Shown one piece after another: positions 1 through 20,198 of a stretch of 64,000 nt of DNA. The translations under genes were made by a program, and so were the position numbers. Source of the stretch: Escherichia coli. Its GTDB lineage: Bacteria > Pseudomonadota > Gammaproteobacteria > Enterobacterales > Enterobacteriaceae. Position 1 is the first letter of the stretch. Each line of letters starts with the position of its first letter. The notes beneath the pieces are model-generated. The model worked only from the letters and a program-made list of their open reading frames with translations, ran no database searches and was not told the DNA's origin. Location: the NCBI RefSeq assembly GCF_003018235.1, contig NZ_CP027437.1; one strand, written 5' to 3'.

Positions 1-17
1 GGGGTAAGATTTCCGGC

Positions 18-521
18 TCATGATTCGATGATTTTCAGAAACGGGTTAGTGGCTTTCTTCTGCCCCGCCAGGCCAATCAGACGCTGGCGGCTGCTGGGGT
101 CGAGTCCGAGCATTGCCCCCGTGCTGCTCATCTCGGACTCCTGTTCTTTTTTGGCGGTCAGCTCCGGGTTTTTGACCATACCGCCCATTGCACCGGTGAT
201 GGTGTTGCCCTGGCTGGCAATATTCTTCACGGCACGTCGCCAGAACTCATAGGCCACGCACCACCGCTCAAGTACCGCCAGGTCAGTCACGCACAACAGG
301 CCCTGACCGCAGAGTTCTTTGGTTGTCAGTTGCCACATGATCGTGGCGAGAGGGAGATCTTCTTCAGCGAACCACTCCGGTGGCTCAACACCTTTGATGG
401 GCGTAAAAACAGGTTCATCTTTGTTCAGGGCTCGCTTGCCGGGGTTTCCGGCCAGCGCCTTGCGCGCCGTTGGCTTGGGGCGACGCCCGGAACGCCCCGC
501 CGTTCCAGCCATATGCGGCAC
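18..521 (-). CDS. phage terminase small subunit (P27-type, by recall)
   Basis: 167-aa ORF immediately downstream of an HNH endonuclease gene in the late operon; family assignment from memory of similar proteins. Confidence 0.5.
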   Translation of the reverse strand: MPHMAGTAGRSGRRPKPTARKALAGNPGKRALNKDEPVFTPIKGVEPPEWFAEEDLPLATIMWQLTTKELCGQGLLCVTDLAVLERWCVAYEFWRRAVKNIASQGNTITGAMGGMVKNPELTAKKEQESEMSSTGAMLGLDPSSRQRLIGLAGQKKATNPFLKIIES

Positions 522-637
522 TCCTGGTTAAATTTCATTTTTCGCGGGTATAAAAAAACGATGGGGCGGGCAGTCCGGAAGACATCAGGTCACAGGGATT
601 TGACCCGCCCCTCCCCTCTGGCAGTGGGAACTGGTTC

Positions 638-988
638 TTACTTCAGCCATTCACGGGCCGTCTTCGCCTTGTGGCACGGCCAGCACAGACTCTGCAGATT
701 ACTGTCGGCATCAGTGCCGCCATGTGCTTTAGGGATGATGTGGTCAACGGTTTTCGCCTCACGCACCACACCGGCACGCAGACATAACTGACACAGGCCT
801 TTGTCACGCTTCAGGACACGCACGCGGATAACATCCCACTTCGAACCATAACCGCGCTGATGACGAGATTGTCCTGGCTTGTATTGCTTCCAGCCTTCGC
901 TTTTATGGCTTTCACAATAGCCTGACGGGTCAGTAGTGGTATTGCGGCAACCGCGAACGCGGCAGGCTTTTGGTGTTCGTGGCGGCAT
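638..988 (-). CDS. phage HNH endonuclease
   Basis: 116-aa product with CxxC ... DHIIP ... N ... CxxCH pattern typical of HNH nucleases; usual position next to terminase. Confidence 0.7.
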   Translation of the reverse strand: MPPRTPKACRVRGCRNTTTDPSGYCESHKSEGWKQYKPGQSRHQRGYGSKWDVIRVRVLKRDKGLCQLCLRAGVVREAKTVDHIIPKAHGGTDADSNLQSLCWPCHKAKTAREWLK

Positions 989-1040
989 ATCTACTCCAAT
1001 GAAAAAGCTACCGGTTGATAACCGATGGCTTTGATTGTTC

Positions 1041-1235
1041 TTACCTGTTTTGAAGAATCTCCCGCTTTCTTACAATACATTCCGTCGTTTCTCTATAGCT
1101 GCACACGTGCTCCCGTGAACATTGGTATGTGTGCAATTCGCCGATGGCATCACCGATACCAGTCAGCACATCTTTTTCATGCAGAATGGTCACCTGCAGA
1201 CGGTTGGTTGGGCAGATAATGTTTGAATAGTTCAT
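1041..1235 (-). CDS. hypothetical phage protein (64 aa)
   Basis: ATG at internal Met of track ORF 1041..1412, preceded by AAGGAG about 8 nt upstream; no recognisable family. Confidence 0.3.
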   Translation of the reverse strand: MNYSNIICPTNRLQVTILHEKDVLTGIGDAIGELHTYQCSREHVCSYRETTECIVRKREILQNR

Positions 1236-1605
1236 TTTGGTGTCTCCTTTGCTTTCGAGACACCAAAATCCCATCACGACACGTTTACCGCCACAAACAT
1301 TATTGCAGGCACCCATTGAATACCTGCGGGACTGATAAACACAGCCTCCTCCATACGTAGTGAAACCATTTTCATATCTCCAGTAATGAATTCTTTGAAG
1401 AGTCGCAATCAATACGACTCACTAATGGGGAGGCATGTCCAACGCGTTGGACGAGTTGCCTACTTGATTTAGATGACACTTTAGAAGGACAGAATGCCTT
1501 CCTCACTCAAATAACATCAATTAAGGAGGTTCAACATGCTTCGTTCCAAAAGTCAGTTGACTGTAATTATTACTACGTCACCTTATGCCGAAGACCTTTT
1601 CCGCT

Positions 1606-1881
1606 TCACTTTGAGCCTGATTCACTTCTACCTGACCGGCTCGCCTCTATCCTTCTGATCCCCGCTTTATCCAGATTGCACTGCCCTAGCGCCGACAACA
1701 GACTGACATTCAAATCTAGACTACCCGCATAAGTCAGCGGTTCAGAAATGGCTGGTTGCGGGGTTTCAGCGGTCAGACTCGCCGGTAACGGTATAGCCGG
1801 AACTGGCACGTAAACTGTCCGCGAACTTTCGCAACCGGTCAGCAGCGGCAGCAGGCACAGGGCGTACAGCACAATCATCAT
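1606..1881 (-). CDS. Rz1-like outer-membrane spanin lipoprotein (overlapping Rz in another frame)
   Basis: Internal start MMIVLYALCLLPLLTGC gives signal peptide plus lipobox LTGC, followed by a proline-rich segment; overlaps 3' end of the Rz-like gene out of frame. Confidence 0.55.
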   Translation of the reverse strand: MMIVLYALCLLPLLTGCESSRTVYVPVPAIPLPASLTAETPQPAISEPLTYAGSLDLNVSLLSALGQCNLDKAGIRRIEASRSGRSESGSK

Positions 1882-2158
1882 CCGCAACAGCCACTTTGAT
1901 ATCAGCCTGGGTTCTCTGTGACTCCAGTGCGATCTGCTGTTTTGCATGCTGGTTAGCCTCCAGAACTGTATTGACGATTTGCAGTGATTGCAGGACGTTA
2001 TTGGTAATAGCGGTTGCCGATTCGGCATTTTGTACAGCCTCATCAGCACGTTTCTTTTCGCGCTGGTATTTGCTGTGGTAGTGGTTAGCTGACCAGACGA
2101 GAGAACCGAATAAAGTCAGGAGGAAAGCAGAAATAACCAGCTTATAGCGAAGTTTCAT
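1766..2158 (-). CDS. Rz-like inner-membrane spanin
   Basis: N-terminal TM segment followed by predicted coiled coil, directly downstream of the endolysin; track ORF starts at TTG 2191, ATG at 2158 preferred. Confidence 0.6.
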   Translation of the reverse strand: MKLRYKLVISAFLLTLFGSLVWSANHYHSKYQREKKRADEAVQNAESATAITNNVLQSLQIVNTVLEANQHAKQQIALESQRTQADIKVAVADDDCAVRPVPAAAADRLRKFADSLRASSGYTVTGESDR

Positions 2159-2618
2159 TAACCACCCCGCCAGCTTCTTTGAATTTGGCAATCAGACTAT
2201 CGATCTTGTGTTCATACTGACCGTAGCCAGCACCGGGCAATGAGGCCCAAATATTGCTGCAACGATCAATAGCCTGACGAATATCACCCCGATCAATCAG
2301 CGGCAGCGCGCCGCGTTCTTTAATCTGCTGTAACGCCACCGCATCCTGGCTTTTCGGGGAGAAATCTTTCAGTCCAAGCTGTTTACGGTAGGCGTCCCAC
2401 CATTTCGACAGCAGTTGATAACGCCCGGCGGCGGTGGATTTCAGTTTCGGGTTAAGCGTAACCAGCTTACGTGGATGATCGGAGTAATCAGTAAGCAGTT
2501 CGCCACCAACGATAACGTCATAACCATGATTTCTGGTCTTCTGCCATCCGTTATCAGTTCCTTCTGACCACGCCAGCATATCGAGGAAGGCTTTACGCTG
2601 AGGATTAAGGTTTTGCAT
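2142..2618 (-). CDS. R: endolysin, lambda R-type lytic transglycosylase
   Basis: 158-aa product near-identical over most of its length to recalled lambda R (QRKAFLDMLAWSEGTDNG...GDIRQAIDRCSNIWASLPGAGYGQ). Confidence 0.9.
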   Translation of the reverse strand: MQNLNPQRKAFLDMLAWSEGTDNGWQKTRNHGYDVIVGGELLTDYSDHPRKLVTLNPKLKSTAAGRYQLLSKWWDAYRKQLGLKDFSPKSQDAVALQQIKERGALPLIDRGDIRQAIDRCSNIWASLPGAGYGQYEHKIDSLIAKFKEAGGVVNETSL

Positions 2619-2922
2619 TTTTCACCCCTGTCAGTCGTTCCCAGAAGTAAGTCAGCGCAACTGAACCCATTGCACCGCTGATCCCTGCTGTGGCGAGAAT
2701 CATGTAAATGCTAAATCCGCTTTCGATACTTATCAGGCCACCAATAACACCGGTAAAACCCGATACCACTATCTGAGCCAGAGCATTAATCCAGCTCCAT
2801 GTTGCTTTGCTCTGCTTCACATCAATCAGGTAACGGACAAGCCCGCCCCAGCACGCGAAGATCAGCAGAACGAGCCAGGACATCCCGGCAATGCTCTCTT
2901 TTTCGTGCATATGAATAGCCAT
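2605..2922 (-). CDS. holin (not lambda S family)
   Basis: About 105 aa with hydrophobic TM segments, dual-Met N-terminus MAIHMHEK, immediately upstream of and overlapping the endolysin gene. Confidence 0.55.
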   Translation of the reverse strand: MAIHMHEKESIAGMSWLVLLIFACWGGLVRYLIDVKQSKATWSWINALAQIVVSGFTGVIGGLISIESGFSIYMILATAGISGAMGSVALTYFWERLTGVKNAKP

Positions 2923-2951
2923 GATTTTGCCGCCGACGGATGATCGGGACT

Positions 2952-3449
2952 CTAAATGATAGGGAACAGACTCACGGGGTAATTTAACGACAAAGCACGG
3001 AGTTGAAGATCCCCACAAGCCTGGAATAAAAAAGCCAGCGACAGGCTGGCAATGTGAGGGTAACGCAAAGTGCTTAGAAACAAAAAAAGGCCGCCATCGG
3101 CGACCTTCGAGGTATCTAGCGTGCTGGATACTTTCAGCTTCGCCTTCAATTCAGCGTTGATTTCTTTCAGGCGATCAACATCGTTTTTAAGTTTTTCAAT
3201 GTCTTGCCCTTTATTATCAAGGTCGCGCTGAAGACCTTTAATAATTTCTGTTTGGGCCGCCTGTACTTCTCGTGTCGTCTGGAGAGACTTATCAATATCA
3301 TCAACTTGGTTAATCAAGCGTGTACCGAAAAAGCCTACAACTAACATAGTTATCCCAACCATAAAGTTGAGAACCCAGACTTTTGTTCCGGAAGCAGTGT
3401 TTGGAGTTTCGTCGATAAAGTGCACCTTATGCCAGTTAAAGTTACCCAA
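2952..3449 (-). CDS. hypothetical membrane/coiled-coil protein; 3' part of ORF probably non-coding
   Basis: TTG-initiated track ORF; internal ATG precedes a TM segment and coiled coil; C-terminal about 45 codons overlie two hairpin+T-tract terminators. Confidence 0.25.
   Translation of the reverse strand: MGNFNWHKVHFIDETPNTASGTKVWVLNFMVGITMLVVGFFGTRLINQVDDIDKSLQTTREVQAAQTEIIKGLQRDLDNKGQDIEKLKNDVDRLKEINAELKAKLKVSSTLDTSKVADGGLFLFLSTLRYPHIASLSLAFLFQACGDLQLRALSLNYPVSLFPII
3030..3107 (-). terminator. two tandem rho-independent terminators in the Q-to-holin interval (tR'-like)
   Basis: On minus strand: hairpin GCCAGCCTGTCGCTGGC followed by TTTTTTATT, and hairpin GGTCGCCGATGGCGGCC followed by TTTTTTTGTTT. 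Confidence 0.45.
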
Positions 3450-3908
3450 CGTCTGCGCAGATCGTTAGATTCGGCAACATTGTAACTGGATAAGGAATAG
3501 AAAACCTTGGAATTTTAAGAAGAAACTGATTGATCGATTATTTAACGAGCGAACACATCCATACACCCCAGACGGGTACTACGACAAAGGCCATGAAATA
3601 AGTAACTTTTGCTTGAATGTTTTGCATTTCGCTTCCTTAGCAGTCCGATAAGTACTGTCTGCTCATCCAACCTAACGAATGTAGATCAGAATGACAAGTC
3701 TTTCGCGCTAATTTCAATTTGATATCTGTTCGTAAACATGATGGCGCGAAATATTACGCATGAAGTGCTTCTACATCAACATAAAAGTTACTTTTTTTGT
3801 GTTCACAGCATGTAAAGTAAAAGCCCCGCACGATGGCGAGGCTGTTAATTCTTTGTCGACCAACAAAGCTATGGCGACGATATCAGATTTACATGAAATA
3901 TAAGCGTT

Positions 3909-4598
3909 TCAGTTCGGTTTTGCAAGACTTACGTGCAAACTTGTCGCCTTTTGTTGTGAACGTGATCGCGTTACTGAGATAAGCGCACCGCTATCGAGTC
4001 GCATAAAGCAGCTACGCATTGCCAACCAGTGAGGCAGGTATGTCTCTGTCCAGGTGGATTTCGCCACGCCAACCAGTTCCGCCAGCTTCTGGTATTCGTA
4101 GGCATCTTTCCCGACCAACCCTGCTTTGACATCCTGCGCTGCCAGCCATATCAGCTTCTTCAGGCGCTCCATGGTCTTGCCTGCCACCCTCTTCGCGCCG
4201 AGATACCCCCTGAATTCAGACCACGCCCACTGGGTGATCGCCACCTGGTATTCAAAGCTGATGTTTTCACTGTAACTCCACAGCAACCACGCTTTCTGAT
4301 GTTCTTCGAGAGACAGAACCGCGCGGCGCCATGAAGATGTTGAGAACTCAACCTGGCTGACCAGTGCAATGGATGAACCTTTTGCGTACGACTGCTTACC
4401 GGAAATCGGCGGATTATCCAGCGTAATCATCTTGCCCGTTACCTCATCCAGAATGCGCGGCTTCTTTCGTTTATATGTACCAGTATCAAATTGTGCATGC
4501 TCCAGCCAGGCTTCAAGCTGGCCTTTCGTTGCTCCGCTCAAATCAGCAGTAGCCACAATGAGTTGCTCGCGGACATACTGTAAATATTGGGTATTCAT
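3909..4598 (-). CDS. putative late-gene antiterminator Q-like protein
   Basis: 229-aa ORF occupying the Q position (downstream of rusA-ylcG, upstream of lysis genes); start overlaps ylcG stop (ATGA); family assignment tentative. Confidence 0.45.
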   Translation of the reverse strand: MNTQYLQYVREQLIVATADLSGATKGQLEAWLEHAQFDTGTYKRKKPRILDEVTGKMITLDNPPISGKQSYAKGSSIALVSQVEFSTSSWRRAVLSLEEHQKAWLLWSYSENISFEYQVAITQWAWSEFRGYLGAKRVAGKTMERLKKLIWLAAQDVKAGLVGKDAYEYQKLAELVGVAKSTWTETYLPHWLAMRSCFMRLDSGALISVTRSRSQQKATSLHVSLAKPN

Positions 4599-4735
4599 GC
4601 GGCAGCTCCTTTCAGTGTTTTGGCGTAATTCTTCAGTATCCGGTAATCGGTCAAAACAGAACCGGGGAAACGATATAAGCGCAGGCGCATCCAGCGGTGG
4701 CGAAGACGTTCTGCCATATAAGACTCAAACATCAT
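4595..4735 (-). CDS. ylcG: small DUF3950-type protein YlcG
   Basis: 46-codon ORF ([46 protein letters not shown]) coupled by ATGA overlaps to rusA and Q; matches recalled K-12 YlcG. Confidence 0.6.
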
Positions 4736-5094
4736 TCATTCCCCAGTTCGGTGATGGTCAGCTCCAGCTTCCCACCTTTGGTAACGGGCATCTTCACAAC
4801 ACGGTAATCAACGACCTGAACATCATCCAGCCAGAAACCTGCTTTGGTGAGTGCGTCAAAAGCGGCTTTTTGCAGATTATCCAGGTCACGGCGACGGCGA
4901 TCCGGCATGTGGCACTCAATACGGATTTTCACAGGCATAGCCAGGCCGATATCCAGCATTGCGTTTTTAATGATTTGGGCGACGTTATCGCGGTATGCCT
5001 GCCCCTCTGCGCTGACGTGCGTGCGCCCGCGATTATGGCGGTAATAGCGATTATTGCTCGGAGGCCAGGGTAATGTGATGCTGTAGGTATTCAC
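4732..5094 (-). CDS. rusA: RusA Holliday junction resolvase
   Basis: 120-aa product near-identical to recalled K-12 RusA ([38 protein letters not shown]...). Confidence 0.9.
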
Positions 5095-5381
5095 GCCTTA
5101 ATAACCCCCTCTTTCAGCCAGATAACCTGTGTTCTCGCCATACCTTCCAGCGCGCATTCTTTTGCATATCCAGCGTCAACAAAATGCGTGCGACGGTCGA
5201 TCTCATCGTGACAGGCAGAACATGCAATGGTGGCAATCAGGTCTGGCGGTTTGGTACCGGTGCCACACAATCCAGCCAGCCGGATATGTGCCAGTACAGA
5301 CGTTTCAGGGTTGCCATTACATATGCCAGGGATTCTTACCTGGCATTCCCGACCACGCGCTGCTTTTCTCAAATCAGCCAT
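5091..5381 (-). CDS. ybcO: DUF1364 prophage protein YbcO
   Basis: Internal ATG ([19 protein letters not shown]...) gives 96-aa product matching recalled K-12 YbcO. Confidence 0.8.
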
Positions 5382-5544
5382 GATTCCTCCTTGCTGCCAG
5401 TCGCAACCATTTTTTATCAACCAGGCTGGCGGTATACCCTAGCAGCGTTGGTATTTCGGATGGCTTCAGCTCAGGCTTACGCTTACGACGATTTGGTACT
5501 CTGTAGATGTGTCCGTTCATGACCCGAATAAGCGGTGTAGTCAT
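5374..5544 (-). CDS. ninE: NinE
   Basis: 56-aa product [28 protein letters not shown]... matches recalled K-12 NinE; TAATG overlap with ybcN. Confidence 0.8.
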   Translation of the reverse strand: MTTPLIRVMNGHIYRVPNRRKRKPELKPSEIPTLLGYTASLVDKKWLRLAARRNHG

Positions 5545-5999
5545 TACGCCTCCTGCTTGTCGCGCAGCAGCTGGAACTCGCAGCTCTGTGGAATAGTCAG
5601 GTGGCAACCAATATTCATCGCCCAGGCTTCAACCTTACACAGGAAGACATACATCTCTCCGGTATCAAGATCGGAGGTATGGCGTAACGACTGGATAGTG
5701 GTGATATCACCGGTTACGACATCAACCAGGTCTTTGGTTTCATAACCGAGATATGTGTGTTTGAGAGCATCTTTTACCCAAGCTGGAGTGGCGAACGTTT
5801 TACCCCTGCTGATGAGGTATTCACTGATTTCGCTGTACCACATGTGGCTGAGTGCATTCTGGGAAAGACTGCGTCTCTCGCGCCACGGTTTAAGCACCAT
5901 GCGAAAGCATTTGCCGTCCTCCAGATAAGGCTGGATCTGCCGACCGATAGCGGTGAAGTTACCGCGATGCAATTTGATACCATCTTGTGGGAGGTTCAC
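5544..5999 (-). CDS. ybcN: DUF1367 prophage protein YbcN
   Basis: 151-aa product matches recalled K-12 YbcN over full length. Confidence 0.85.
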
Positions 6000-6191
6000 G
6001 CTTCACCTCCGCAGAGATCAAACGCTGGATGCAAAATATCGCAGGTGCATTTCTGCATCTGTGAATGGAGAAGAGAGGTTGGATTGTATGTGCGCATAAA
6101 CGTCCCCGTTTAGCGCAGAAGTCACCGGAGGAGTTCAAACTCTGGTGACTTAATTATGGCAAGTTGATTGTTGAAAATCAATTTAGTGGAT

Positions 6192-6974
6192 TTAGGCGCA
6201 ATACAAAGGATCATTAGCAGCTCTAATACCGCCCTGAATCGCAAGCCCTGTATGGCAATTTGACATTGAGCATGATTGCCATCTGTGCAAGGGACCTCCA
6301 TTAATCGAAACTTCCAGCAGATCTTTATCTCCTTTCATCCTGACCCCTTCATACAACATATCAAGACGCTCAACAATCAATCCTGTTGGAGGTTCCATTT
6401 TTAGAACGAGGGCAAACTCTCCTGGCCCACGTCGTATTGTTATACGCGGGCCGGTACACTCCACATCCCAATTGTCTGATTTAGCTTTCCATTCATTTTC
6501 ATCTATCAGTAAAGTCTCCTTACCAATAGAATTACAGAAAATTCCTGATAAAAGCATCGGTCCATGTGGTATGGGTGAAGGTTTCACAGAAAGAATGGGT
6601 TGTTCGTTGACTACAATCAAATTTTGACAGTTATGAAACGTCACTCCTGCAAATTTTACTGTTATAGGCTCATTATGAAAATCAAACATTTCATTTGCAA
6701 AACCAGCCTGTAAGCACTTGGGATTTCTGTCAGCTATTTCCACTGTCTGTGCTGAAAGTCTACCACGAGCTCTTTTTTGATTGCATTGGGAGCAAAGAAG
6801 TGTCATTCCATTCGGATCATGTACTTTGGCATCAACGAAGTCAGGTTTAAAATGCTCATAATCATAAAATCCAAATCCACAAATTACACAGCCAAAGCCG
6901 CACCTTTGCCTTATCTGACGTTTTATTGTCTCAGGTATTCTTCTTGAGAGCCCGTGTTTATTAATATTGTCCAT
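6192..6974 (-). CDS. HNH-domain protein with uncharacterised C-terminal domain (prophage cargo)
   Basis: 260 aa; N-terminal CGFGCVICG...YEHFKP...NGMTLLCSQCNQK fits HNH nuclease motif; about 160-aa C-terminal region unrecognised; AT-rich codon usage. Confidence 0.5.
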   Translation of the reverse strand: MDNINKHGLSRRIPETIKRQIRQRCGFGCVICGFGFYDYEHFKPDFVDAKVHDPNGMTLLCSQCNQKRARGRLSAQTVEIADRNPKCLQAGFANEMFDFHNEPITVKFAGVTFHNCQNLIVVNEQPILSVKPSPIPHGPMLLSGIFCNSIGKETLLIDENEWKAKSDNWDVECTGPRITIRRGPGEFALVLKMEPPTGLIVERLDMLYEGVRMKGDKDLLEVSINGGPLHRWQSCSMSNCHTGLAIQGGIRAANDPLYCA

Positions 6975-7148
6975 ATGGTTAGTACGCTATAAGTTTGTTT
7001 CTATAATTTTACCACAATAGATAAGTTTGTATCAGAAATCGCTATATGGAGTGAGCGGAATATTTATATTATTCATGCAATTGCTCTCCCGTACGCAGCC
7101 CGCACTTCCGTCATCGCAGAATGACGGAAGCCTTACTAACTAGCGCCT

Positions 7149-7472
7149 TTATTGAAACAGATTCTGAGGTAAATGCGGCAATACTCGACTCCACTTATCA
7201 TCCTGCCACGGCTGAAGTTTTACATGTGCCGTTTCTCGGACGAGGATTGCTCGCGCTCTGTTGAGTATCTGGGGATATTCTTGCTCGATGGAAGTGAAGT
7301 GACCAGCTTCACCATGCTCCGCATCCTGAAGAAGATGAGTAACGTTCTGGTAGGCAATTAACATCACATTCCCTGCTCGCCATAACCAGGCGAGTGTGCA
7401 AAGTTCGTTATCAGTGAATTGTTTTGTGATTGGGGATTGTTGAACTGCTAGAACGAGAACGCCAGCATCCAT
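7149..7472 (-). CDS. hypothetical protein (uncertain coding status)
   Basis: 107-aa ORF between ybcK and the HNH gene; no recognisable motif; overlapped by a 62-aa plus-strand ORF. Confidence 0.2.
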   Translation of the reverse strand: MDAGVLVLAVQQSPITKQFTDNELCTLAWLWRAGNVMLIAYQNVTHLLQDAEHGEAGHFTSIEQEYPQILNRARAILVRETAHVKLQPWQDDKWSRVLPHLPQNLFQ

Positions 7473-7583
7473 TGGCAGTCCCTATAGTAAAACCATAGCT
7501 CAGGACGCTTCGTTCAGGATAGATAATTTTATTGTACTTACCTAACTTTCTTACTATAGCACGGTTGAAAAAGTGATTATTAC

Positions 7584-9110: not shown

Positions 9111-9364
9111 GGTGACACCTGCTAACGTATGCTTTTATAAACCTTAGTGGCGAGATATAATTTTTGTTTAATTTTTATTTAAAAAGACAATTAAGGTCAC
9201 ATTATCTTGAATATACAACAATAATCGTATTGCAATTTTCTTACGCCATAATCTTGAAAGCACAAAAGAATACATAAAAAATAAAGACATTAACAAAAAG
9301 CATAAAACGAGGCTCATATAAATATAAGAGCCTCCATATTTTAGTCGTTTAGAAACAAATTATT

Positions 9365-9697: not shown

Positions 9698-9764
9698 AGC
9701 ATATTCTTTCCTGTTCAAACTGGAGAGAATTGTACTACAGTTTGAACTCAACTCACCTGTTTCA

Positions 9765-11781: not shown

Positions 11782-12317
11782 ATTGCCCCCAGCATGGTGG
11801 TGACCATTGCCATCAGTGGACCAGCCAGATCCGGGTCCACTCGAAACATCGACACAATGCCTTCACTCATCTCCTTCAGTTTCTGGTGGCGTGGTGCGTT
11901 GAGAATGACCGCCTGCTTTGCCTCACTGAGTTCCTTTTCCATTTCAGCCAGCCGAGCCATGAAGCTATCCTGCTCAACTAGGTAACCGCGATATTCCAGC
12001 GGTAGTACCGCCAGAATTGCCGGGGTCAGTTCACGCACGTTATTTCTGTATTTTTCAGAATCGAATTTGTTATCGAGGAAGCGGAACAGCTTCTGGCGTG
12101 CACGGCTGACATCATCAGGGAAATCGATGGTGCCGCCGCCCTGCTCCCGATACTCATTCACAATGAGTGCGGCAACGACATCCTGATTATCTACAGCCGA
12201 CCAGGCGCGGACGGCATCACGGATTTTTTCGTGGCCTGGAGCTTGTTTTGTTTGAGAACGATTTATCACCGCAGTCGGGCTAAATCCGCTAGTCTGTTGG
12301 TATGTAAGTGGTTGCAT
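11778..12317 (-). CDS. cII-position regulatory protein (possibly YdaT-like)
   Basis: 179-aa ORF between cro-like gene and O, ATGA overlap with O start; family not recognised with confidence. Confidence 0.35.
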   Translation of the reverse strand: MQPLTYQQTSGFSPTAVINRSQTKQAPGHEKIRDAVRAWSAVDNQDVVAALIVNEYREQGGGTIDFPDDVSRARQKLFRFLDNKFDSEKYRNNVRELTPAILAVLPLEYRGYLVEQDSFMARLAEMEKELSEAKQAVILNAPRHQKLKEMSEGIVSMFRVDPDLAGPLMAMVTTMLGAI

Positions 12318-12386
12318 AATTGACTCCTTTAGTTTGAATTGACTGTTAAGTTGATTGCTTATTGTTAAAGAGCGTGAAATGGAAAT

Positions 12387-12617
12387 TTAAGCTGCGTTCT
12401 TTTCAGTGTGTGGAAACAACTTCGGAAGATCCGGGCGAATCTGGTATGCCTTCACTACTCCACCAGTAGCCGTAACAATGCTGCCGACATGTTCAGGGGA
12501 TACCTTTGCTTTGTTGTGAAGCCACTTATAGACGGCCTGCTGTGAAACTTCGCAGGCAGCGCCTAGTTTCTTTTGTGAACCAACGATATTGATCGCTGTT
12601 TTGATGGCTGGGTTCAT
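12387..12617 (-). CDS. cro: Cro-like HTH regulator
   Basis: 76-aa protein with HTH (LGAACEVSQQAVYKWL), divergent from cI, GGAGG 5 nt upstream of ATG. Confidence 0.6.
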   Translation of the reverse strand: MNPAIKTAINIVGSQKKLGAACEVSQQAVYKWLHNKAKVSPEHVGSIVTATGGVVKAYQIRPDLPKLFPHTEKNAA

Positions 12618-12721
12618 AACAACCTCCGTGGTTAATTTGAATCAAGATTAAAACCATGGTTGTTTTTAGTCAACAACCATTTTCGTTTGATGAAATAAAA
12701 CCTTGGTTGTACATTTGGACT
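12618..12721. promoter_or_regulatory. OR-like operator/promoter region between cro and cI
   Basis: Three palindromic sites built on AACCA/TGGTT half-sites (AACCATGGTT; ACAACCATT; AACCTTGGTTGT) in a 100-bp divergent intergenic region. Confidence 0.45.
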
Positions 12722-13411
12722 ATGAAAACAACACTCTCAGAAAGACTTAAAGAAGCCAGATTAGCGCGAGGCCTTACACAAAAGGCGCTTGGGGATTTGG
12801 TCGGGGTTAGCCAAGCAGCTATTCAGAAAATCGAAACAGGGAAAGCTAACCAAACAACTAAAATCGTGGAGATCGCGAACGCTTTGGGTGTGCGCGCAGA
12901 ATGGTTATCTTCTGGCGTTGGAAATATGTCAGACAGTACAGTGCAACCAATACAAACAACTGTCAGCCATTCCAAATACTTTAAGATTGACGTTCTTGAT
13001 ATCGAAGTGAGTGCCGGGCCGGGAGTCATCAACCGTGAGTTTGTAGAAGTTCTACGCTCGGTTGAGTACTCGTTTGACGATGCTCGTCACATGTTCGATG
13101 GTAGGAAGGCAGAAAATATCCGCATCATTAACGTACGCGGTGACAGCATGTCAGGAACGATTGAACCTGGTGATCTTCTATTCGTTGATATCACGGTTAA
13201 ATCTTTCGACGGTGATGGTATCTATGCGTTTCTGTACGACGACACAGCCCATGTAAAGCGCCTGCAAATGATGAAGGATAAGCTGCTGGTTATCTCTGAT
13301 AACAAAAGCTACTCACCGTGGGACCCGATCGAGAAAGATGAGATGAACCGGGTATTTATCTTCGGGAAAGTTATTGGGAGCATGCCGCAGACGTATAGGA
13401 AGCATGGATAG
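12722..13411 (+). CDS. cI: CI-type prophage repressor (HTH plus S24 LexA-like peptidase domain)
   Basis: N-terminal HTH (LTQKALGDLVGVSQAAIQKIE), Ala-Gly cleavage site, GDSM serine motif and downstream Lys; ATG with almost no leader. Confidence 0.8.
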   Translation: MKTTLSERLKEARLARGLTQKALGDLVGVSQAAIQKIETGKANQTTKIVEIANALGVRAEWLSSGVGNMSDSTVQPIQTTVSHSKYFKIDVLDIEVSAGPGVINREFVEVLRSVEYSFDDARHMFDGRKAENIRIINVRGDSMSGTIEPGDLLFVDITVKSFDGDGIYAFLYDDTAHVKRLQMMKDKLLVISDNKSYSPWDPIEKDEMNRVFIFGKVIGSMPQTYRKHG

Positions 13412-13491
13412 TACCAATTAAAAATTATCAACCGGGCATTGTGCTCATTCAGTAAAACAACTTAATTATTCATTTTAGAATGGAGAACTTA

Positions 13492-14553
13492 ATGGATACT
13501 TTAAAATATGAGAAATTCTCTGATTTTGATCACAATGACCCATTTTTTGACTCTTTAAAAAAAGATTATAAAGAGTTTCCTCTTTGGTTAGAAAAAAAAG
13601 CCAGAGAAGGAGAATCAGCTTATGTGCTCTATGATGACAAGCATAAAATCGAAGGTTTTATGTATCTAAAAGAAAATGATGATGCAAATGACATTAATCC
13701 AGCGCTCCCACCAGGACGTCATCTAAAGATAGGAACATTCAAATTTGAATCTAAAGGCACCCTTCGCGGACAACGATTTCTAAAAAAAGCGTTTGACCAT
13801 GCATTTTCATCAAAATCTGATGATATTTATGTTACTGTTTTCGACAAACACGTCCATCTAATAAAACTTTTCCAAACGTACGGATTTTACATTCATGGTG
13901 AAAAAGAAACACATAACGGGAAAGAGTTTGTATATGCGAGGTCTTTGCATGAGCCTTATGGTGATATTTTATTAGATTACCCTCGAATAATGACATCAAG
14001 GGCCAACAAATATTTACTGGCGATTTATCCCGAATATCACACTAGACTATTCCCTGATTCAAAACTTGTAAATGAATCACCAGATATTGTCAAAGATATA
14101 TCCCATGCTAACAGCATTCATAAAATTTACATATGTGGAATGCGTTCTGTGATGGGAATGAAAAGAGGAGATATCATTGTCATCTATAGAACCGGAGACA
14201 AAAAAGGGCCAGCTCGCTATCGTTCTGTAGCCAGTACATTATGTGTAGTTGAGAGCGTAAAAAATATTTCTGAATTTTTAAGCGAAGATAGTTTTGTAGA
14301 CTATTGTATTCGTTTTAGCGTATTTTCTGAAGATGAACTCAGAAAAATCTATAAAGAACGTCGATACCCTTTCATTATAAGATTCACATACAATCTGTCT
14401 TTGCCAAAGAGACCCAATCGTGCTATTTTAATAGATCATGTGGGGCTAAATGGTTCGCGTGCATTCCGATGGAGTCACTTTAAACTCACAAATGAGCAGT
14501 TCTTAAAGATCATCGAGTTAGGCAAGATAAATGAAAGTTTTATTATCCATTAA
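13492..14553 (+). CDS. hypothetical protein, first gene of rexAB-position operon
   Basis: 353 aa from ATG with GGAG 6 nt upstream (track ORF starts 13480); AT-rich; no family recognised; C-terminal half has PUA-like-looking motifs (GDIIVIY). Confidence 0.4.
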   Translation: MDTLKYEKFSDFDHNDPFFDSLKKDYKEFPLWLEKKAREGESAYVLYDDKHKIEGFMYLKENDDANDINPALPPGRHLKIGTFKFESKGTLRGQRFLKKAFDHAFSSKSDDIYVTVFDKHVHLIKLFQTYGFYIHGEKETHNGKEFVYARSLHEPYGDILLDYPRIMTSRANKYLLAIYPEYHTRLFPDSKLVNESPDIVKDISHANSIHKIYICGMRSVMGMKRGDIIVIYRTGDKKGPARYRSVASTLCVVESVKNISEFLSEDSFVDYCIRFSVFSEDELRKIYKERRYPFIIRFTYNLSLPKRPNRAILIDHVGLNGSRAFRWSHFKLTNEQFLKIIELGKINESFIIH

Positions 14554-14908
14554 GCCTGAGTTTGCAGAAAAAATATTGAACGGAACAAAGCGGTTCGAGT
14601 TTCGTAAAGGTATATTCAAAAATCCGCAAATTAGCACCGTTGTTATTTATGCCACGATGCCATTAGGTAAAGTTGTTGGTCAATTCCGTATTGAATCAAT
14701 ACTAAGTGACGAACCGGAATCTCTTTGGAAAAAGACGGAAAAACACGCAGGTATTTCTAAGCAATTTTATGACTCATATTATTCAGGTAGAGAAAAGGCC
14801 TACGCAATAAAAATTGGTGAAGTGGAAAGATATAAAGAACCAATTCCTATCTCTGCTCTAGGTAGTAATATTAAGCCACCACAATCATATCTTTACCTAC
14901 CTGCGTAA
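14531..14908 (+). CDS. ASCH/PUA-like domain protein
   Basis: 125 aa; MKVLLSIKPEFAEKILNGTKRFEFRK N-terminus resembles ASCH-domain consensus; overlaps upstream gene by 23 nt (translational coupling). Confidence 0.5.
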   Translation: MKVLLSIKPEFAEKILNGTKRFEFRKGIFKNPQISTVVIYATMPLGKVVGQFRIESILSDEPESLWKKTEKHAGISKQFYDSYYSGREKAYAIKIGEVERYKEPIPISALGSNIKPPQSYLYLPA

Positions 14909-14912
14909 GAAT

Positions 14913-14939
14913 CCCGGCCACCGTGCCGGGTTTTCTTTT
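14913..14939 (+). terminator. rho-independent terminator ending the cI operon
   Basis: Hairpin CCCGGCCACCGTGCCGGG followed by TTTTCTTTT, 5 nt after the ASCH gene stop. Confidence 0.7.
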
Positions 14940-15049
14940 ATCCCCTCCCCTCATCACATATACCGTTCAAAAAACCACCACAATCTCCCTTCAGTTATCG
15001 CTATGCGATGCAAGTCACAAAATAAACCCATCCTAAATACAACCAGTTA

Positions 15050-15112
15050 CATCTAAAACAACCAATAAAACAACTTTTGTTGTTGACGATAAAACAACTA
15101 TAGTTTTAAATA
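15050..15112 (+). promoter_or_regulatory. pL/OL-like promoter with operator repeats
   Basis: TTGACG-N17-TTAAAT overlapped by ACAACCA and AACAACTTTTGTTGTT palindromes sharing half-sites with the OR region. Confidence 0.45.
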
Positions 15113-15184
15113 AATTCATCGCAACAACACAACGATACGGCAACCACCTGATTCACCGTTGCGATGACCGCTTAGATCCGCAGC

Positions 15185-15595
15185 TTGAATTTCAGCAGGC
15201 TCCGGGGAGTGCGAGGGGTGAAGCGGACGCGTGAACGTCGGTGTGACCAGCTGAAATCAACTCAACACTTCATACCTCAGTCGCTTCAACGAGGCGGCTT
15301 AGTTATGACAACCGGCGGCCATCCACCGCCTGAATACGCGCAGAAGTCTCCATATGTTCAGCAGCCCAGCTTACGGGCAGGAGTTTTTATGGTTCATCAA
15401 CATTATGGAACGCAGACCGTTAATCGAGGTGCGGTCATGCCAGGAATGCTGGTCAAACACAAAGATGGTACCTGGACTGCATCAGCTAATTTACGCGGAC
15501 GGCTTTATCTGCATCGCGGCATCGAGCGCACTTATACCCGTGATTTGCTCGTGGAAGTTTTTCTCGACGGACGCGGTAACGGCCTGAATCACTAA
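15185..15595 (+). CDS. hypothetical early-left protein (Arg-rich N-terminus; true start uncertain)
   Basis: 136-aa ORF between pL-like promoter and gam; Arg-rich N-terminus reminiscent of N-type ARM but no boxA/boxB nut site found. Confidence 0.25.
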
Positions 15596-15670
15596 TCCCC
15601 TTTCCTGTTTTCCTAATCAGCCTGGCATTTCGCGGGCGATATTTTCACAGCCATTTTCAGGAGGTCAGCC

Positions 15671-15967
15671 ATGAACGCTTATTACATTCAGGATCGTCTT
15701 GAGGCTCAGAGCTGGGCGCGTCACTACCAGCAGATCGCCCGTGAAGAGAAAGAGGCAGAACTGGCAGACGACATGGAAAAAGGCCTGCCCCAGCACCTGT
15801 TTGAATCGCTATGCATCGATCATTTGCAACGCCACGGGGCCAGCAAAAAAGCCATTACCCGTGCGTTTGATGACGATGTTGAGTTTCAGGAGCGCATGGC
15901 AGAACACATCCAGTACATGGTTGAAACCATTGCTCACCACCAGGTTGATATTGATTCAGAGGTATAA
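15671..15967 (+). CDS. gam: Gam (RecBCD inhibitor), short form
   Basis: 98-aa product near-identical to recalled lambda GamS ([21 protein letters not shown]...). Confidence 0.85.
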
Positions 15968-15972
15968 AACGG

Positions 15973-16758
15973 ATGAGTACAGCACTCGCAACGCTGGCAG
16001 GGAAGCTGGCTGAACGTGTCGGCATGGATTCTGTCGACCCACAGGAACTGATCACCACTCTTCGCCAGACGGCATTTAAAGGTGATGCCAGCGATGCGCA
16101 GTTCATCGCATTACTGATCGTTGCCAACCAGTACGGCCTTAATCCATGGACGAAAGAAATTTACGCCTTTCCTGATAAGCAGAATGGCATCGTTCCGGTG
16201 GTGGGCGTTGATGGCTGGTCCCGCATCATCAATGAAAACCAGCAGTTTGATGGCATGGACTTTGAGCAGGACAACGAATCCTGTACATGCCGGATTTACC
16301 GCAAGGACCGCAATCATCCGATCTGCGTTACCGAGTGGATGGATGAATGCCGCCGCGAACCATTCAAAACCCGCGAAGGCAGAGAAATTACGGGGCCGTG
16401 GCAGTCGCATCCCAAACGGATGTTACGGCATAAAGCCATGATTCAGTGTGCCCGTCTGGCCTTCGGATTTGCTGGTATCTATGACAAGGATGAAGCCGAG
16501 CGCATTGTCGAAAATACTGCATACACTGCAGAACGTCAGCCGGAACGCGACATCACTCCGGTTAACGATGAAACCATGCAGGAGATTAACACTCTGCTGA
16601 TCGCCCTGGATAAAACATGGGATGACGACTTATTGCCGCTCTGTTCCCAGATATTTCGCCGCGACATTCGTGCATCGTCAGAACTGACACAGGCCGAAGC
16701 AGTGAAAGCTCTTGGATTCCTGAAACAGAAAGCCACTGAGCAGAAGGTGGCAGCATGA
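15973..16758 (+). CDS. bet: Bet (Red-beta single-strand annealing protein)
   Basis: 261-aa product essentially identical to recalled lambda Bet. Confidence 0.95.
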
Positions 16759-17435
16759 CACCGTACATTATCCTGCAGCGTACCGGGATCGACGTGAGAG
16801 CTGTCGAACAGGGGGATGATGCATGGCACAAATTACGGCTCGGCGTCATCACCGCTTCAGAAGTTCACAACGTGATAGCAAAGCCCCGCTCAGGAAAGAA
16901 GTGGCCTGACATGAAAATGTCCTACTTCCACACCCTGCTGGCTGAGGTTTGCACCGGTGTGGCTCCGGAAGTTAATGCTAAGGCGCTGGCCTGGGGAAAA
17001 CAGTACGAGAACGACGCCAGAACCCTGTTTGAATTCACTTCCGGCGTGAATGTTACTGAATCCCCGATCATCTATCGCGACGAAAGTATGCGCACCGCCT
17101 GCTCTCCAGATGGTTTATGCAGTGACGGCAACGGCCTTGAACTGAAATGCCCGTTTACCTCCCGGGATTTCATGAAATTCCGGCTCGGTGGTTTTGAGGC
17201 AATAAAATCGGCTTACATGGCCCAGGTGCAGTACAGCATGTGGGTGACGCGAAAAGATGCCTGGTACTTTGCCAACTATGACCCGCGCATGAAGCGTGAA
17301 GGCCTGCATTATGTCGTGATTGAGCGGGATGAAAAGTACATAGCGAGTTTTGACGAGATGGTGCCGGAGTTCATCGAAAAAATGGACGAGGCACTGGCTG
17401 AAATTGGTTTTGTATTTGGGGAGCAATGGCGATGA
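16755..17435 (+). CDS. exo: Exo (Red-alpha 5'-3' exonuclease)
   Basis: 226-aa product near-identical to recalled lambda Exo. Confidence 0.95.
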
Positions 17436-17614
17436 CGCATCCTCACGATAATATCCGGGTAGGCGCGATCGCTTTCGTCTACTCCGTTACAAAGCGAGGC
17501 TGGGTATTTCCCGGCCTTTCTGTTATCAGAAATCCACTGAAAGCACAGCGGCTGGCTGAGAAGATAAATAATAAACGGGAGGCGGTATGCACAAAGCATC
17601 TCCTGTTGAGTTAA
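17426..17614 (+). CDS. lambda orf60a-like small protein
   Basis: 62-aa ORF directly after exo, position and size as in lambda. Confidence 0.35.
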
Positions 17615-17778
17615 GAACGAGTATTGAGATGGCACATAGCCTTGCTCAAATTGGAGTCAGGTTTGTGCCAATACCAGTAGAAACAGACGAAGAATTTCAT
17701 ACGTTAGCCACATCCCTTTCACAAAAGCTGGAAATGATGGTGGCGAAAGCAGAAGCAGATGAGAGAGACCAGGTATGA
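17587..17778 (+). CDS. lambda orf63-like protein
   Basis: 63-aa product [23 protein letters not shown]... matches recalled lambda Orf63. Confidence 0.5.
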   Translation: MHKASPVELRTSIEMAHSLAQIGVRFVPIPVETDEEFHTLATSLSQKLEMMVAKAEADERDQV

Positions 17779-17858
17779 CAACCACTGAATGCATTTTTCT
17801 GGCAGCGGGCTTCATATTCTGTGTGCTTATGCTTGCCGACATGGGGCTTGTTCAATGA
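17775..17858 (+). CDS. 27-aa hydrophobic micro-ORF (MTTTECIFLAAGFIFCVLMLADMGLVQ)
   Basis: ATGA-coupled to orf63 stop and to the following ORF start; single TM-like segment. Confidence 0.3.
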   Translation: MTTTECIFLAAGFIFCVLMLADMGLVQ

Positions 17859-18070
17859 CACCTCAGCAAGAAAACGCCCTTCGCAGCATTGCCCGTCAGG
17901 CTAATTCTGAAATCAAAAAAGCCAGACAGCATTTTCCGGATAAAAACGTCGATGACATTTGCCGTAGCGTACTAAAGAAGCACCGCGAAACGGTAACGCT
18001 GATGGGATTCACACCGACTCATTTAAGCCTGGCGATCGGCATGTTGAACGGCGTCTTTAAGGAACGGTGA
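17855..18070 (+). CDS. lambda orf61-like protein
   Basis: 71-aa product from ATG coupled to upstream micro-ORF (track ORF starts 17789). Confidence 0.35.
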   Translation: MTPQQENALRSIARQANSEIKKARQHFPDKNVDDICRSVLKKHRETVTLMGFTPTHLSLAIGMLNGVFKER

Positions 18071-18168
18071 ACATGAAAAGCAAAATCATCAGGGAGCTAC
18101 AGGCTCCTTTTTTATTATTCGCATTTACCCTCAAGCGTATTAACCAACAATTCAGGGATTAATGAAAG

Positions 18169-18387
18169 ATGGCAGACATCATTGATTCAGCATCAGAAAT
18201 CGAAGAATTACAGCGCAATACAGCAATAAAAATGCGTCGTCTGAACTACCAGACTGTATCCGCAACTCATTGTTGTGAGTGTGGCGATCCGATAGATGAG
18301 CGAAGACGCCTGGCTGTTCAGGGTTGTCGGACTTGTGCTAGTTGCCAGGAGGAGATCGAACTTAAGAACAAACAATGGGGACTGTGA
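18169..18387 (+). CDS. TraR/DksA-family C4 zinc-finger protein (lambda Orf73-like)
   Basis: 72 aa with CCECGDPIDERRRLAVQGCRTCASCQ (C4 finger typical of TraR/DksA family). Confidence 0.7.
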   Translation: MADIIDSASEIEELQRNTAIKMRRLNYQTVSATHCCECGDPIDERRRLAVQGCRTCASCQEEIELKNKQWGL

Positions 18388-18434
18388 TGGCCTCAAAGCA
18401 GCAAATTTCAACATCGTCCAACTGAGGTGTAAAA

Positions 18435-18713
18435 ATGTTCAGAATCATTTTTCCTAACACCTGGTACGTCGACCACCACGGCACTCCCTGCAAAATCCTG
18501 CGTTCTACCCACAACAAAGTTCACTACATCCGAAAAGGCAGAACATGTATCGCCAGCATGTTCCGCTTTAATCATGACTTTGAACCTGTGAATAAAGCTG
18601 ATGCAGATCGGATAGCAGAAGAGATCGAAACGGCAGAACACATTAAGAAGTTACGTGACATGCGTTCAAAAAGCAGAGGTAACCATGGAATCATACAGCC
18701 TCACACTCGATGA
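18435..18713 (+). CDS. hypothetical protein (Ea8.5 position)
   Basis: 92-aa ORF between orf73-like gene and xis; no motif recognised. Confidence 0.3.
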   Translation: MFRIIFPNTWYVDHHGTPCKILRSTHNKVHYIRKGRTCIASMFRFNHDFEPVNKADADRIAEEIETAEHIKKLRDMRSKSRGNHGIIQPHTR

Positions 18714-19056
18714 GGCCTGTCAGTTTCTTAAGATATCCAGACCAACCGCCACCAACTGGATACGAACAGGCCGCCTACAGGCAACACGTAAAGATCCAAC
18801 CAAGTCAAAATCTCCTTACCTCACAACACGGCAAGCCTGCATTGCGGCGCTTCAGTCTCCGCTGCATACTGTCCAGGTGAGCGCGGGTGATGGCATAACA
18901 GAGGAAAGAAAATGTCACTCTTCCGCAGAAATGAAATATGGTATGCCTCGTATTCGCTCCCGGGCGGGAAACGAATTAAGGAATCTCTTGGCACAAAGGA
19001 CAAGCGGCAAGCTCAGGAGTTGCACGACAAGCGAAAAGCAGAACTCTGGCGAGTAG
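18685..19056 (+). CDS. xis: putative excisionase
   Basis: ATG with GAGGT RBS within GTG-initiated track ORF 18655..19056; winged-helix-like N-terminus ([26 protein letters not shown]); 3' end overlaps int in another frame. Confidence 0.4.
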
Positions 19057-20075
19057 AAAAGCTAGGGGATTTACCTGATGTCACTTTTGAAGAGGCCTGC
19101 CTAAGATGGCTTGAGGAAAAAGCTGATAAAAAATCTCTCGATTCAGATAAAAGCCGGATTGAGTTCTGGCTTGAACATTTTGAGGGTATAAGGCTTAAAG
19201 ATATCTCGGAGGCAAAGATTTACTCTGCTGTAAGCAGAATGCATAACAGAAAGACGAAAGAAATATGGAAACAGAAAGTTCAGGCCGCCATCAGGAAAGG
19301 TAAAGAACCGCCTGTTTATGAACCAAAGCCAGTATCAACTCAGACAAAGGCAAAGCATCTTGCCATGATAAAGGCCATTCTCCGTGCTGCAGAACGCGAC
19401 TGGAAGTGGCTGGAAAAAGCGCCTGTCATCAAGATACCAGCGGTCAGAAACAAGCGAGTCAGATGGCTGGAAAAGGAGGAAGCAAAACGCCTTATTGATG
19501 AGTGCCCCGAACCACTGAAATCTGTCGTCAAGTTTGCGCTGGCAACTGGTCTGAGAAAGTCGAACATCATAAATCTGGAATGGCAACAAATCGACATGCA
19601 GCGACGAGTTGCCTGGGTGAATCCAGAAGAGAGCAAATCAAACCGCGCCATTGGTGTGGCGCTGAACGATACCGCCTGTAAAGTGTTGCGTGATCAAATA
19701 GGCAAGCATCACAAATGGGTGTTTGTACATACCAAGGCGGCTAAGCGAGCAGATGGAACATCAACGCCTGCGGTCAGGAAGATGCGCATCGACAGCAAGA
19801 CATCATGGCTATCAGCTTGTCGTCGTGCAGGAATTGAAGATTTCCGTTTCCATGACCTCAGACACACCTGGGCAAGCTGGCTGATTCAGTCAGGCGTCCC
19901 ATTATCAGTGCTTCAGGAAATGGGCGGATGGGAGTCCATAGAAATGGTTCGTAGGTATGCTCACCTTGCGCCTAATCATTTGACAGAGCATGCGAGGAAA
20001 ATAGACGACATTTTTGGTGATAATGTCCCAAATATGTCCCACTCTGGAATTATGGAGGATATAAAGAAGGCGTAA
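18912..20075 (+). CDS. intD: tyrosine integrase IntD
   Basis: 387-aa product with C-terminal catalytic R...HDLRHT...Y motifs; matches K-12 DLP12 IntD length and position next to argU. Confidence 0.9.
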
Positions 20076-20090
20076 CTGATTGAATTGTAA

Positions 20091-20167: not shown

Positions 20168-20198
20168 GTTGATACCGCAATGCGGTGTAATCGCGTGA

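Follow-up and report, generated by a model that had tools for sequence, protein, structure and literature searches.

A lambdoid prophage in argU of Escherichia coli joins a DLP12-type early arm to an SfII-type virion module and carries a PDC-M11 gene pair

In Escherichia coli K-12 the argU locus is occupied by the cryptic prophage DLP12 (NC_000913, 564755-586056). A 64,000-nucleotide stretch of another E. coli genome (contig NZ_CP027437.1, assembly GCF_003018235.1; hereafter the window) also holds a lambdoid prophage at argU, which raises the question of whether this element is complete and what it reveals of the state from which DLP12 decayed. The original prediction, made from the letters of the window, described a mosaic argU prophage that may be a largely intact relative of DLP12. 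A tRNA-Arg(UCU) at 20091-20167 (-), with the same sequence as K-12 argU, is the sole tRNA that ARAGORN reports in the window. The 47-bp DLP12 att core (CTTCTAAGTCGTGGGCCGCAGGTTCGAATCCTGCAGGGCGCGCCATT) lies at 20089-20135, occurs once in the window and is the same as both DLP12 ends in K-12, where a 47-bp attR has been described (PMC6379469). Everything left of the core is phage DNA that continues past position 1, and the chromosome to the right of argU carries fimZ, the sfm genes, fdrA and allC (window 20100-44000). Of this lambdoid prophage in argU, window 1-20135 represents the half that adjoins attL.

The prophage is an ordinary mosaic of modules. An open reading frame (ORF) map with Pfam and PHROG matches gave the lambdoid order of int-xis, recombination genes, repressor with divergent PL and PR, replication, nin, Q, lysis and packaging-head-tail (Table 1). 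The int, xis and att module is of DLP12 type, kil-gam-bet-exo of lambda type, the immunity and replication genes belong to a phage group that comprises the isolated PhiR34_1 (PV340559; MG1655 is its recorded host), 4A7 and Lambda_4C10, and the nin region is again of DLP12 type. Next come an 82-type Q, lysis genes that include a lambda R-like endolysin, packaging genes of the HNH/P27-TerS kind and, left of the window, SfII/SfIV-type virion genes. All 25 of the 25 extracted ORFs were full length and free of internal stops. Together with blastn against DLP12 and lambda, this confirmed the predicted mosaic, in which every named gene is present at full length.

Five blocks of DLP12 matched the prophage in blastn, all collinear with its int-to-nin arm: 4594-6181 (ylcH to ylcG, including ybcN, ninE, ybcO and rusA; 95.8% identity), 7545-9978 (ybcK, ylcJ, emrE and the 3' part of ren; 97.1%), 9977-10375 (a ren/P fragment; 96.7%), 17156-17461 (exoD; 99%) and 18817-20200 (xisD, intD and argU; 99.8%). 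K-12 DLP12 is without window 10375-17156, which holds the N-terminal part of P, O, the cII analogue, cro, cI, kil, gam, bet and the N-terminal part of exo. It is also without 17461-18817, with small ORFs and the N-terminal helix-turn-helix (HTH) of xis, and keeps only amino acids (aa) 131-233 of P, 108-226 of Exo and 43-123 of Xis. Insertion sequence (IS) IS3 splits its ren, and IS5 lies in nmpC. The late half of DLP12 consists of quuD, nmpC, essD-rrrD-rzpD, bor, nohD and lambda-type tail remnants. Neither blastn nor tblastn matched quuD, nmpC, essD-rrrD-rzpD, bor or nohD to the window prophage, whose late half is unrelated to that of DLP12. In total the prophage matches only 6.0 of the 21.3 kb of DLP12, compared to 13.5 of 21.3 kb for PhiR34_1. 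The description as an intact relative of DLP12 thus fits the int-to-nin arm but not the late half.

The related claim that the element shows what DLP12 lost is true of the two early-arm segments above, but the losses are better read from PhiR34_1 and from the full-length argU prophage of O55:H7 strain CB9615 (NC_013941). Both share the int/xis/att module, Red, cI-cro-ydaT, O/P/ren, emrE, ybcK and nin with the window prophage at 98-99% nucleotide and 97-100% protein identity, and CB9615 has all of the ren-to-argU segment at 98.5%. Unlike the window prophage, both also have ybcL/M, quuD, a porin, essD/rrrD/rzpD, bor/iss, nohD and a complete lambda-type siphovirus virion. The CB9615 prophage retains every DLP12 landmark, iss and nohD included, and carries the PDC-M11 pair described below, which PhiR34_1 is without. 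These two are far better models of an intact DLP12 than the window prophage.

Lambda (NC_001416) and the window prophage have the same overall gene order. Lambdoid phages are classically defined by the viable hybrids that they form on recombination with lambda, and sequence homology to lambda in the ren-P and Red regions here is 95-97%. They match in blastn at 9792-11228 (ren, P and the C-terminal part of O; 94.9%), 15589-18364 (kil-gam-bet-exo-orf60a/63/61; 97.1%) and 2167-2601 (R; 81.6%, or 90-91% at the aa level). The window prophage is without lambda cI, cro, cII, N, rexAB, cIII, Q, S, Rz/Rz1, nu1/A and virion genes, and it is integrated in argU rather than at attB(gal-bio). Its immunity had been called lambda-type, which is so for the gene layout but not for the genes: CI shares only 26% identity with lambda cI, Cro is of the YdaS type, a YdaT-domain protein fills the cII slot, and no homologue of lambda N, cIII or rexAB was found among the ORFs of the window prophage. 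In prophage CP-933P, YdaS and YdaT have been shown experimentally to be analogues of Cro and CII (PMC8630535). The predicted autocleavage motifs of CI are intact, with Ala98-Gly99, Ser142 and Lys179 aligning with A111-G112, S149 and K192 of lambda cI. Both OR (12650-12713) and OL/PL (15033-15112) contain repeated palindromes of the AAAACAAC...GTTGTTTT type. The predicted iterons were also present within O, as five TTTACCTGATTCGGGTAAA-like repeats at 11228-11349 adjoined by an AT-rich stretch at 11196-11225. The homology of O to lambda begins at 11228, exactly at the last iteron. This is a classical swap of the N-terminal domain along with the iterons, both of which differ from lambda in specificity.

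The late half could be followed beyond the window on two contigs found by exact look-up of the HNH protein, L016 (ABUMTU010000001.1, assembly GCA_041857655.1) and L017 (Logan contig SRR15713652_12; 39,348 bp). Each matches window 1-10988 at 100% identity, and between the two a single base differs over 20,351 bp. To the left of position 1 they add 9,363 bp of back-to-back ORFs, which by Pfam encode an intact TerL (577 aa), portal, S78 protease, HK97-fold major capsid protein, connectors, tail terminator, sheath, tube and tail assembly chaperone. This continuation is 97-98% identical to phages SfII, SfI, SfIV and vB_EcoM-720R4, whose genomes are 35-41 kb; the first three are Shigella serotype-converting phages. 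Since the HNH and P27 TerS genes lie at 18-988, the virion module begins inside the window, and public contigs with the exact TerS protein number in the thousands, always with TerL and portal next to it. We infer that the virion module is of the SfII/SfIV type, with an HK97-like head and a Mu-like contractile tail. The structural genes had been named as the place where a missing or disrupted region might undo the original prediction; what the two contigs hold there is 9.4 kb of uninterrupted virion genes. Exact-protein look-ups with TerS, the tail assembly chaperone, sheath and tube (2,700-63,000 blocks) returned other lineages only, at 96-98.6% identity, and a lineage-specific 41-mer run against IMG/VR hit four contigs at 96-98%, none identical to the window prophage. 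Searches with the early arm (window 1-20200) gave no similarity to SfII, SfI, SfIV or vB_EcoM-720R4, the early and integration regions of which were not compared directly.

The closest relatives of the two halves differ, being PhiR34_1 and DLP12 for one and SfII and SfIV for the other. Tandem lambdoid arrays at tRNA sites are known, and two abutting elements, a DLP12-like remnant from int to Q and an unrelated SfII-like myovirus prophage or fragment, would give the same picture as a tandem or composite. We consider this very unlikely. The order of Q, pR', lysis and HNH/TerS is normal, no second integrase, att core or immunity region lies between the halves, and the joint architecture exists as one unit elsewhere. 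In strain S1bESBLb the DLP12-type arm and the SfII-type virion form a single unit at lambda attB, with a lambda-type int. The whole architecture is likewise shared by pCE-O153H30-A (NZ_CP172337.1), a 44.8-kb circular molecule matching window 1-19180 at 94.9% identity with 73% covered, which has the SfII-type virion, lysis genes, Q, DLP12-type nin, ybcK, emrE, ren-P-O, ydaT-cro-cI and Red. Its integrase is a different one, Avs2 lies beside attP, a Panacea-domain pair takes the place of PDC-M11 and iss that of the 64-aa ORF, and ybcN contains IS2. The record was deposited as a plasmid but amounts to a complete phage genome, and it is likely to be an excised or replicating phage. The same two units count against an assembly chimera, in which reads of different prophages would have been joined across shared lambdoid sequence. 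Lambdoid modules are indeed repeated within genomes (a median of 3 matching places per genome among 5,426 complete RefSeq E. coli genomes, the set used throughout). However, two independent assemblies (NCBI and Logan) match the window over 10,988 bp at 100%, and each other over 20,351 bp bar a single nucleotide, and about 20 further similar places are on record, which makes a chimera extremely improbable.

With one element accepted, its extent is suggested by the boundaries of L017. By coordinates the first base of this contig is window 20118, so that it opens with 30 bases of the att core (20089 + 29). A k=31 graph assembly breaks in this manner where the core recurs in a second context, and this boundary, taken with the 39,348-bp length, points to another copy of the core some 39.3 kb distant. 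The contig boundary thus implies that the whole element would be a temperate lambdoid phage of about 39.3 kb with att repeats at both ends; its putative attR is placed solely from the start of L017 in the core and the 39,348 bp. We regard it as probable that the prophage is complete and still functional, virion genes included. This reading follows from the intact visible ORFs, from early proteins that match their PhiR34_1 counterparts at 97-100% identity (100% for O, P, Ren, Cro, Kil, Gam and EmrE, 99.6% for CI, 99.7% for Int and 98.4% for Xis), from a PL-kil region shared with 16 isolated phages, and from the presence of the CI residues, iterons, OL-OR and PL and of the promoter, isrJ-like RNA and terminator next to Q. 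It follows further from the virion ORFs that continue uninterrupted left of the window, from the start of the 39,348-bp contig in the att core, and from the existence of a phage of the same architecture as the circular pCE-O153H30-A.

Several points weigh against a functional prophage. A contig from another sample (L018), 99.6% identical, crosses attL into the chromosome without a break, so an attR copy is not necessarily present in every carrier. The last ~9.9 kb, from tape measure to fibres, is deduced from the size and boundary of one contig, although 9.9 kb is the right size for the tape measure, baseplate, fibres and invertase found in relatives. Between PL and kil (14931-15388) there was no N-type antiterminator, nut/boxB or put-like RNA and no Rfam match, and the fold of the PL leader was no better than shuffles (z-score -0.64). 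This leaves early transcription without an evident antiterminator for its passage to Q in this phage group, though isolated relatives share the arrangement: the PL-kil region without N is common to 16 isolated phages, so antitermination by N or put is not required for viability in the group. The reading frame of kil can be extended upstream, from a TTG at 15185, by an arginine-rich stretch that might have served as an N-like arginine-rich motif; this candidate was dropped, there being no boxB and the PGAP start of kil being 15389. Finally, functionality is judged here from sequence, in which point mutations in promoters, operators, cos or the att arms cannot be assessed.

If any such lesion exists, in the tail or fibre region, attR, a regulatory site or cos, the element would be a grounded, defective prophage that persists as cargo (emrE, PDC-M11, Red, rusA) in the manner of DLP12. 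In ~74% of E. coli and Shigella strains argU is occupied by prophages, which frequently are degraded (PMC6379469), many complete genomes match the query in part only, with 0 of the 5,426 covering at least 80% of window 1-20200, and the relative H1 ends just past its lysis genes, with trkG next. The unbroken L018 contig also fits a grounded element. We nevertheless hold a defective prophage to be unlikely, if a serious possibility, as the 29.4 kb contain neither stops nor frameshifts nor IS elements, the early proteins are nearly those of a plaque-forming phage, the virion ORFs are contiguous and of the same sizes as in SfII-type phages, and 39,348 bp agrees with the genomes of the SfII-type group (35-41 kb).

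A functional prophage would be expected to work as follows, each step being taken from well-studied homologues except for the sequence features named as seen. In the lysogen, CI dimers would bind the OR and OL palindromes and silence PR and PL, while PRM would keep cI and PDC-M11 on; the operators, the terminator and the operon layout are seen in the sequence. DNA damage would lead to RecA-stimulated autocleavage of CI, for which the needed residues are present. PL would then give Kil, Gam, Bet, Exo, Xis and Int, and PR would give Cro, the CII analogue, O and P, with O acting on the five iterons and P recruiting DnaB. Read-through would reach Q, which would modify RNA polymerase at pR' and carry it past the isrJ-like leader terminator into the lysis and virion genes. 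Int and Xis would recombine the 47-bp cores and so excise the genome.

The most notable cargo lies between cI and PL, where the original prediction had passed over two ORFs (13480-14908). They encode the PDC-M11 pair, whose genes overlap by 23 nucleotides. Because an intrinsic terminator follows the pair and precedes OL, the pair is placed in the cI operon, where lambda has rexAB. PDC-M11 is a candidate defence or toxin-antitoxin pair by its sequence. The GenBank record of phage PhiR47_2 (PV340567) annotates the same pair as GevT toxin and GevA antitoxin, and a search of the available literature on GevT/GevA, PDC-M11 and the PhiR phages found nothing relevant. The cassette is present at 99% identity or more in 274 of the 5,426 complete genomes, and the cI-PL slot of relatives is either empty or filled by a Panacea-domain pair. 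EVE-type domains are folds that read modified bases. One could imagine an abortive-infection module expressed in the lysogen, in which the EVE domain senses modified phage nucleic acid and frees a translation-blocking GNAT toxin that the ASCH protein restrains or reverses; we think this distinctly doubtful. Were it true, the novelty would lie in the mechanism, for which no paper was found, and not in the existence of the pair, which GenBank already names as toxin and antitoxin.

PhiR47_2 is 97% identical at the nucleotide level to window 7299-18664, including the PDC-M11 pair. PhiR47_2 and the group of 4A7, Lambda_4C10, 1W, 3W and Perceval have the Q type, the holin type and the PL region without N in common with the window prophage, and they differ from it in integrase and attachment site, in their lambda-type virion genes and in their ybcK-ybcN cargo. 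At least 80% of the ren-to-argU segment is found in 511 of the 5,426 complete genomes, which shows intact DLP12-type prophages to be common at argU. The chromosomal flank (20100-44000) is at best 98.6% identical to any of them, which argues that the host belongs to a poorly sampled lineage.

Other features of the prophage vary among its relatives. Its further morons are emrE, ybcK, the 260-aa HNH-like protein, the P22AR_C fragment, the 131-aa coiled-coil ORF and the 64-aa ORF. The slot between ybcK and ybcN (6192-7472) holds ybcL/ybcM in K-12 and CB9615 and a different 347-aa ORF in PhiR47_2, and in S1bESBLb a Kiwa system replaces this slot together with the whole ren-to-ybcK block. Q gave no match to lambda Q or DLP12 quuD. 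Directly downstream of Q, an Rfam isrJ match (3820-3893; 64.9 bits against a gathering score of 37) lies between a promoter-like site and a terminator, apparently the usual pR'-qut-tR' arrangement; the "isrJ small RNA" family here resembles the short leader RNA that is made from pR' in lambdoid late operons. The position between pR' and the holin is a moron slot, occupied by stx in Stx phages and by nmpC in DLP12. The 131-aa ORF found there in the window has an N-terminal hydrophobic segment and two terminator-like hairpins within its 3' end, which puts its true extent in doubt, and the stretch 2952-3347 is absent from the relatives H1 and H3. In the lysis cassette, predicted to hold a lambda R endolysin with holin and spanins, only R is lambda-like: the holin (PF16083) is not lambda S, and the DUF2570-type spanins are not lambda Rz/Rz1. 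A conserved, unannotated 43-aa ORF at 1537-1668 (+) follows a palindrome and a strong Shine-Dalgarno sequence and runs antisense to the o-spanin gene at its 3' end. A T7 RNA polymerase-triggered gene at ~1412 was considered on the strength of a 14-nucleotide exact core match (AATACGACTCACTA, then ATGGGGAGG; ~1410-1432 (+)). The likeness is probably due to chance, because relatives carry A rather than G at -11, a critical position, within a block that is simply conserved.

Table 1. Features of the argU prophage within the window, listed from position 1 towards argU.
Feature	Position	Strand	Evidence and remarks
Terminase small subunit TerS, P27 family	18-512	-	PF05119 E 4e-21
HNH endonuclease of HNH-TerS-TerL packaging module	638-988	-	PF01844 E 2e-16
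64-aa ORF (phrog_31491)	1041-1235	-	PHROG E 3e-49; hypothetical in S1bESBLb; bor/iss slot of relatives
o-spanin lipoprotein, overlapping i-spanin	1606-1881	-	phrog_456 E 1e-26; lipobox LLTGC in translation
i-spanin, DUF2570 type	1766-2158	-	phrog_214 E 7e-48
Endolysin, lambda R-like	2142-2618	-	91% identity over 155 aa to lambda R (BLASTP)
Holin, LydA-like, holin superfamily III	2605-2922	-	PF16083 E 2e-22; phrog_785 E 2e-40; not lambda S
131-aa coiled-coil ORF, moron slot between pR' and holin	2952-3347	-	weak coiled-coil matches; hypothetical CDS in S1bESBLb
pR'-like promoter, isrJ-family leader RNA, tR'-like terminator	3820-3925	-	promoter-like site 3925-3897; terminator 3843-3822
Q late antiterminator	3909-4598	-	PF06323 E 1e-91; 75% identical to PhiR47_2 Q
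ylcG, nin region	block 4595-5999	-	96-98% aa identity to K-12 DLP12 proteins
rusA, nin region	4732-5094	-	96-98% aa identity to K-12 DLP12 proteins
ybcO, nin region	5091-5381	-	96-98% aa identity to K-12 DLP12 proteins
ninE, nin region	5374-5544	-	96-98% aa identity to K-12 DLP12 proteins
ybcN, nin region	5544-5999	-	96-98% aa identity to K-12 DLP12 proteins
HNH-like 260-aa Cys-rich protein	6192-6974	-	phrog_6544; same gene annotated in relatives
P22AR_C ORF, 107 aa	7149-7472	-	P22 antirepressor C-terminal domain alone; same gene annotated in relatives
ybcK, large serine recombinase	7584-9110	-	PF00239, PF07508, PF13408; 97.2% identical to K-12 YbcK
emrE, SMR efflux pump, phage moron	9365-9697	-	99.1% identical to K-12 EmrE, 100% to PhiR34_1 copy
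ren	9765-10067	-	90% aa identity to lambda Ren; 100% to PhiR34_1
P	10064-10765	-	97.9% identical to lambda P; 100% to PhiR34_1
O	10762-11781	-	lambda-like in C-terminal part only; 100% identical to PhiR34_1
YdaT-domain protein in cII position	11778-12317	-	PF06254 E 1e-29
Cro, YdaS family	12387-12617	-	PF15943 E 4e-17
OR operator/promoter region	12620-12720		repeated palindromic sites, AAAACCATGGTTGTTTT type; half-sites recur at OL
CI repressor, HTH and S24 peptidase	12722-13411	+	PF01381, PF00717; 99.6% identical to PhiR34_1 cI
PDC-M11 protein A, GNAT and EVE-like	13480/13492-14553	+	PADLOC profile E 2e-133, full length
PDC-M11 protein B, ASCH domain	14531-14908	+	PADLOC E 7e-52; PF04266; PDB 5GUQ E 9e-16
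Intrinsic terminator	14913-14930	+	closes PDC-M11 pair just before OL
OL operators and PL	15033-15112	+	TTGACG-17-TTAAAT, rightward; operator repeats common to OR
kil	15389-15595	+	phrog_294 match
gam	15671-15967	+	96.9% aa identity to lambda
bet	15973-16758	+	99.6% aa identity to lambda
exo	16755-17435	+	98.2% aa identity to lambda
Small early-left ORFs	17426-18713	+	orf60a-like DUF1317, orf63-like, orf61-like; PHROG matches, annotation of relatives
TraR/DksA-like ORF	18169-18387	+	PHROG match, annotation of relatives
DUF4222 ORF	18435-18713	+	PHROG match, annotation of relatives
Excisionase (HTH_17)	18685-19056	+	PF12728 E 1.5e-8; overlaps int
IntD tyrosine integrase	18912-20075	+	99.5% identical to K-12 IntD; adjoins argU
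attL	20089-20167	-	core 20089-20135 within and just past argU 3' end (argU 20091-20167)

Collectively, these results describe a prophage that is real but not novel, since close relatives, plaque-forming phages among them, and complete published copies are already in databases. The losses of DLP12 have likewise been documented by closer relatives. The prophage is a clean example of lambdoid module shuffling, in which a DLP12-type arm, lambda Red, PhiR34_1-type immunity and an SfII-type myovirus virion are combined, and it confirms live phages as carriers of the K-12 genes emrE, ybcK, rusA and ybcN. In practice it is of use as a further natural source of PDC-M11 (GevT/GevA) in a repressor operon. 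The slot between cI and PL is a swap site for defence or toxin-antitoxin cargo, which holds PDC-M11 here, a Panacea-domain pair in pCE-O153H30-A and nothing elsewhere.

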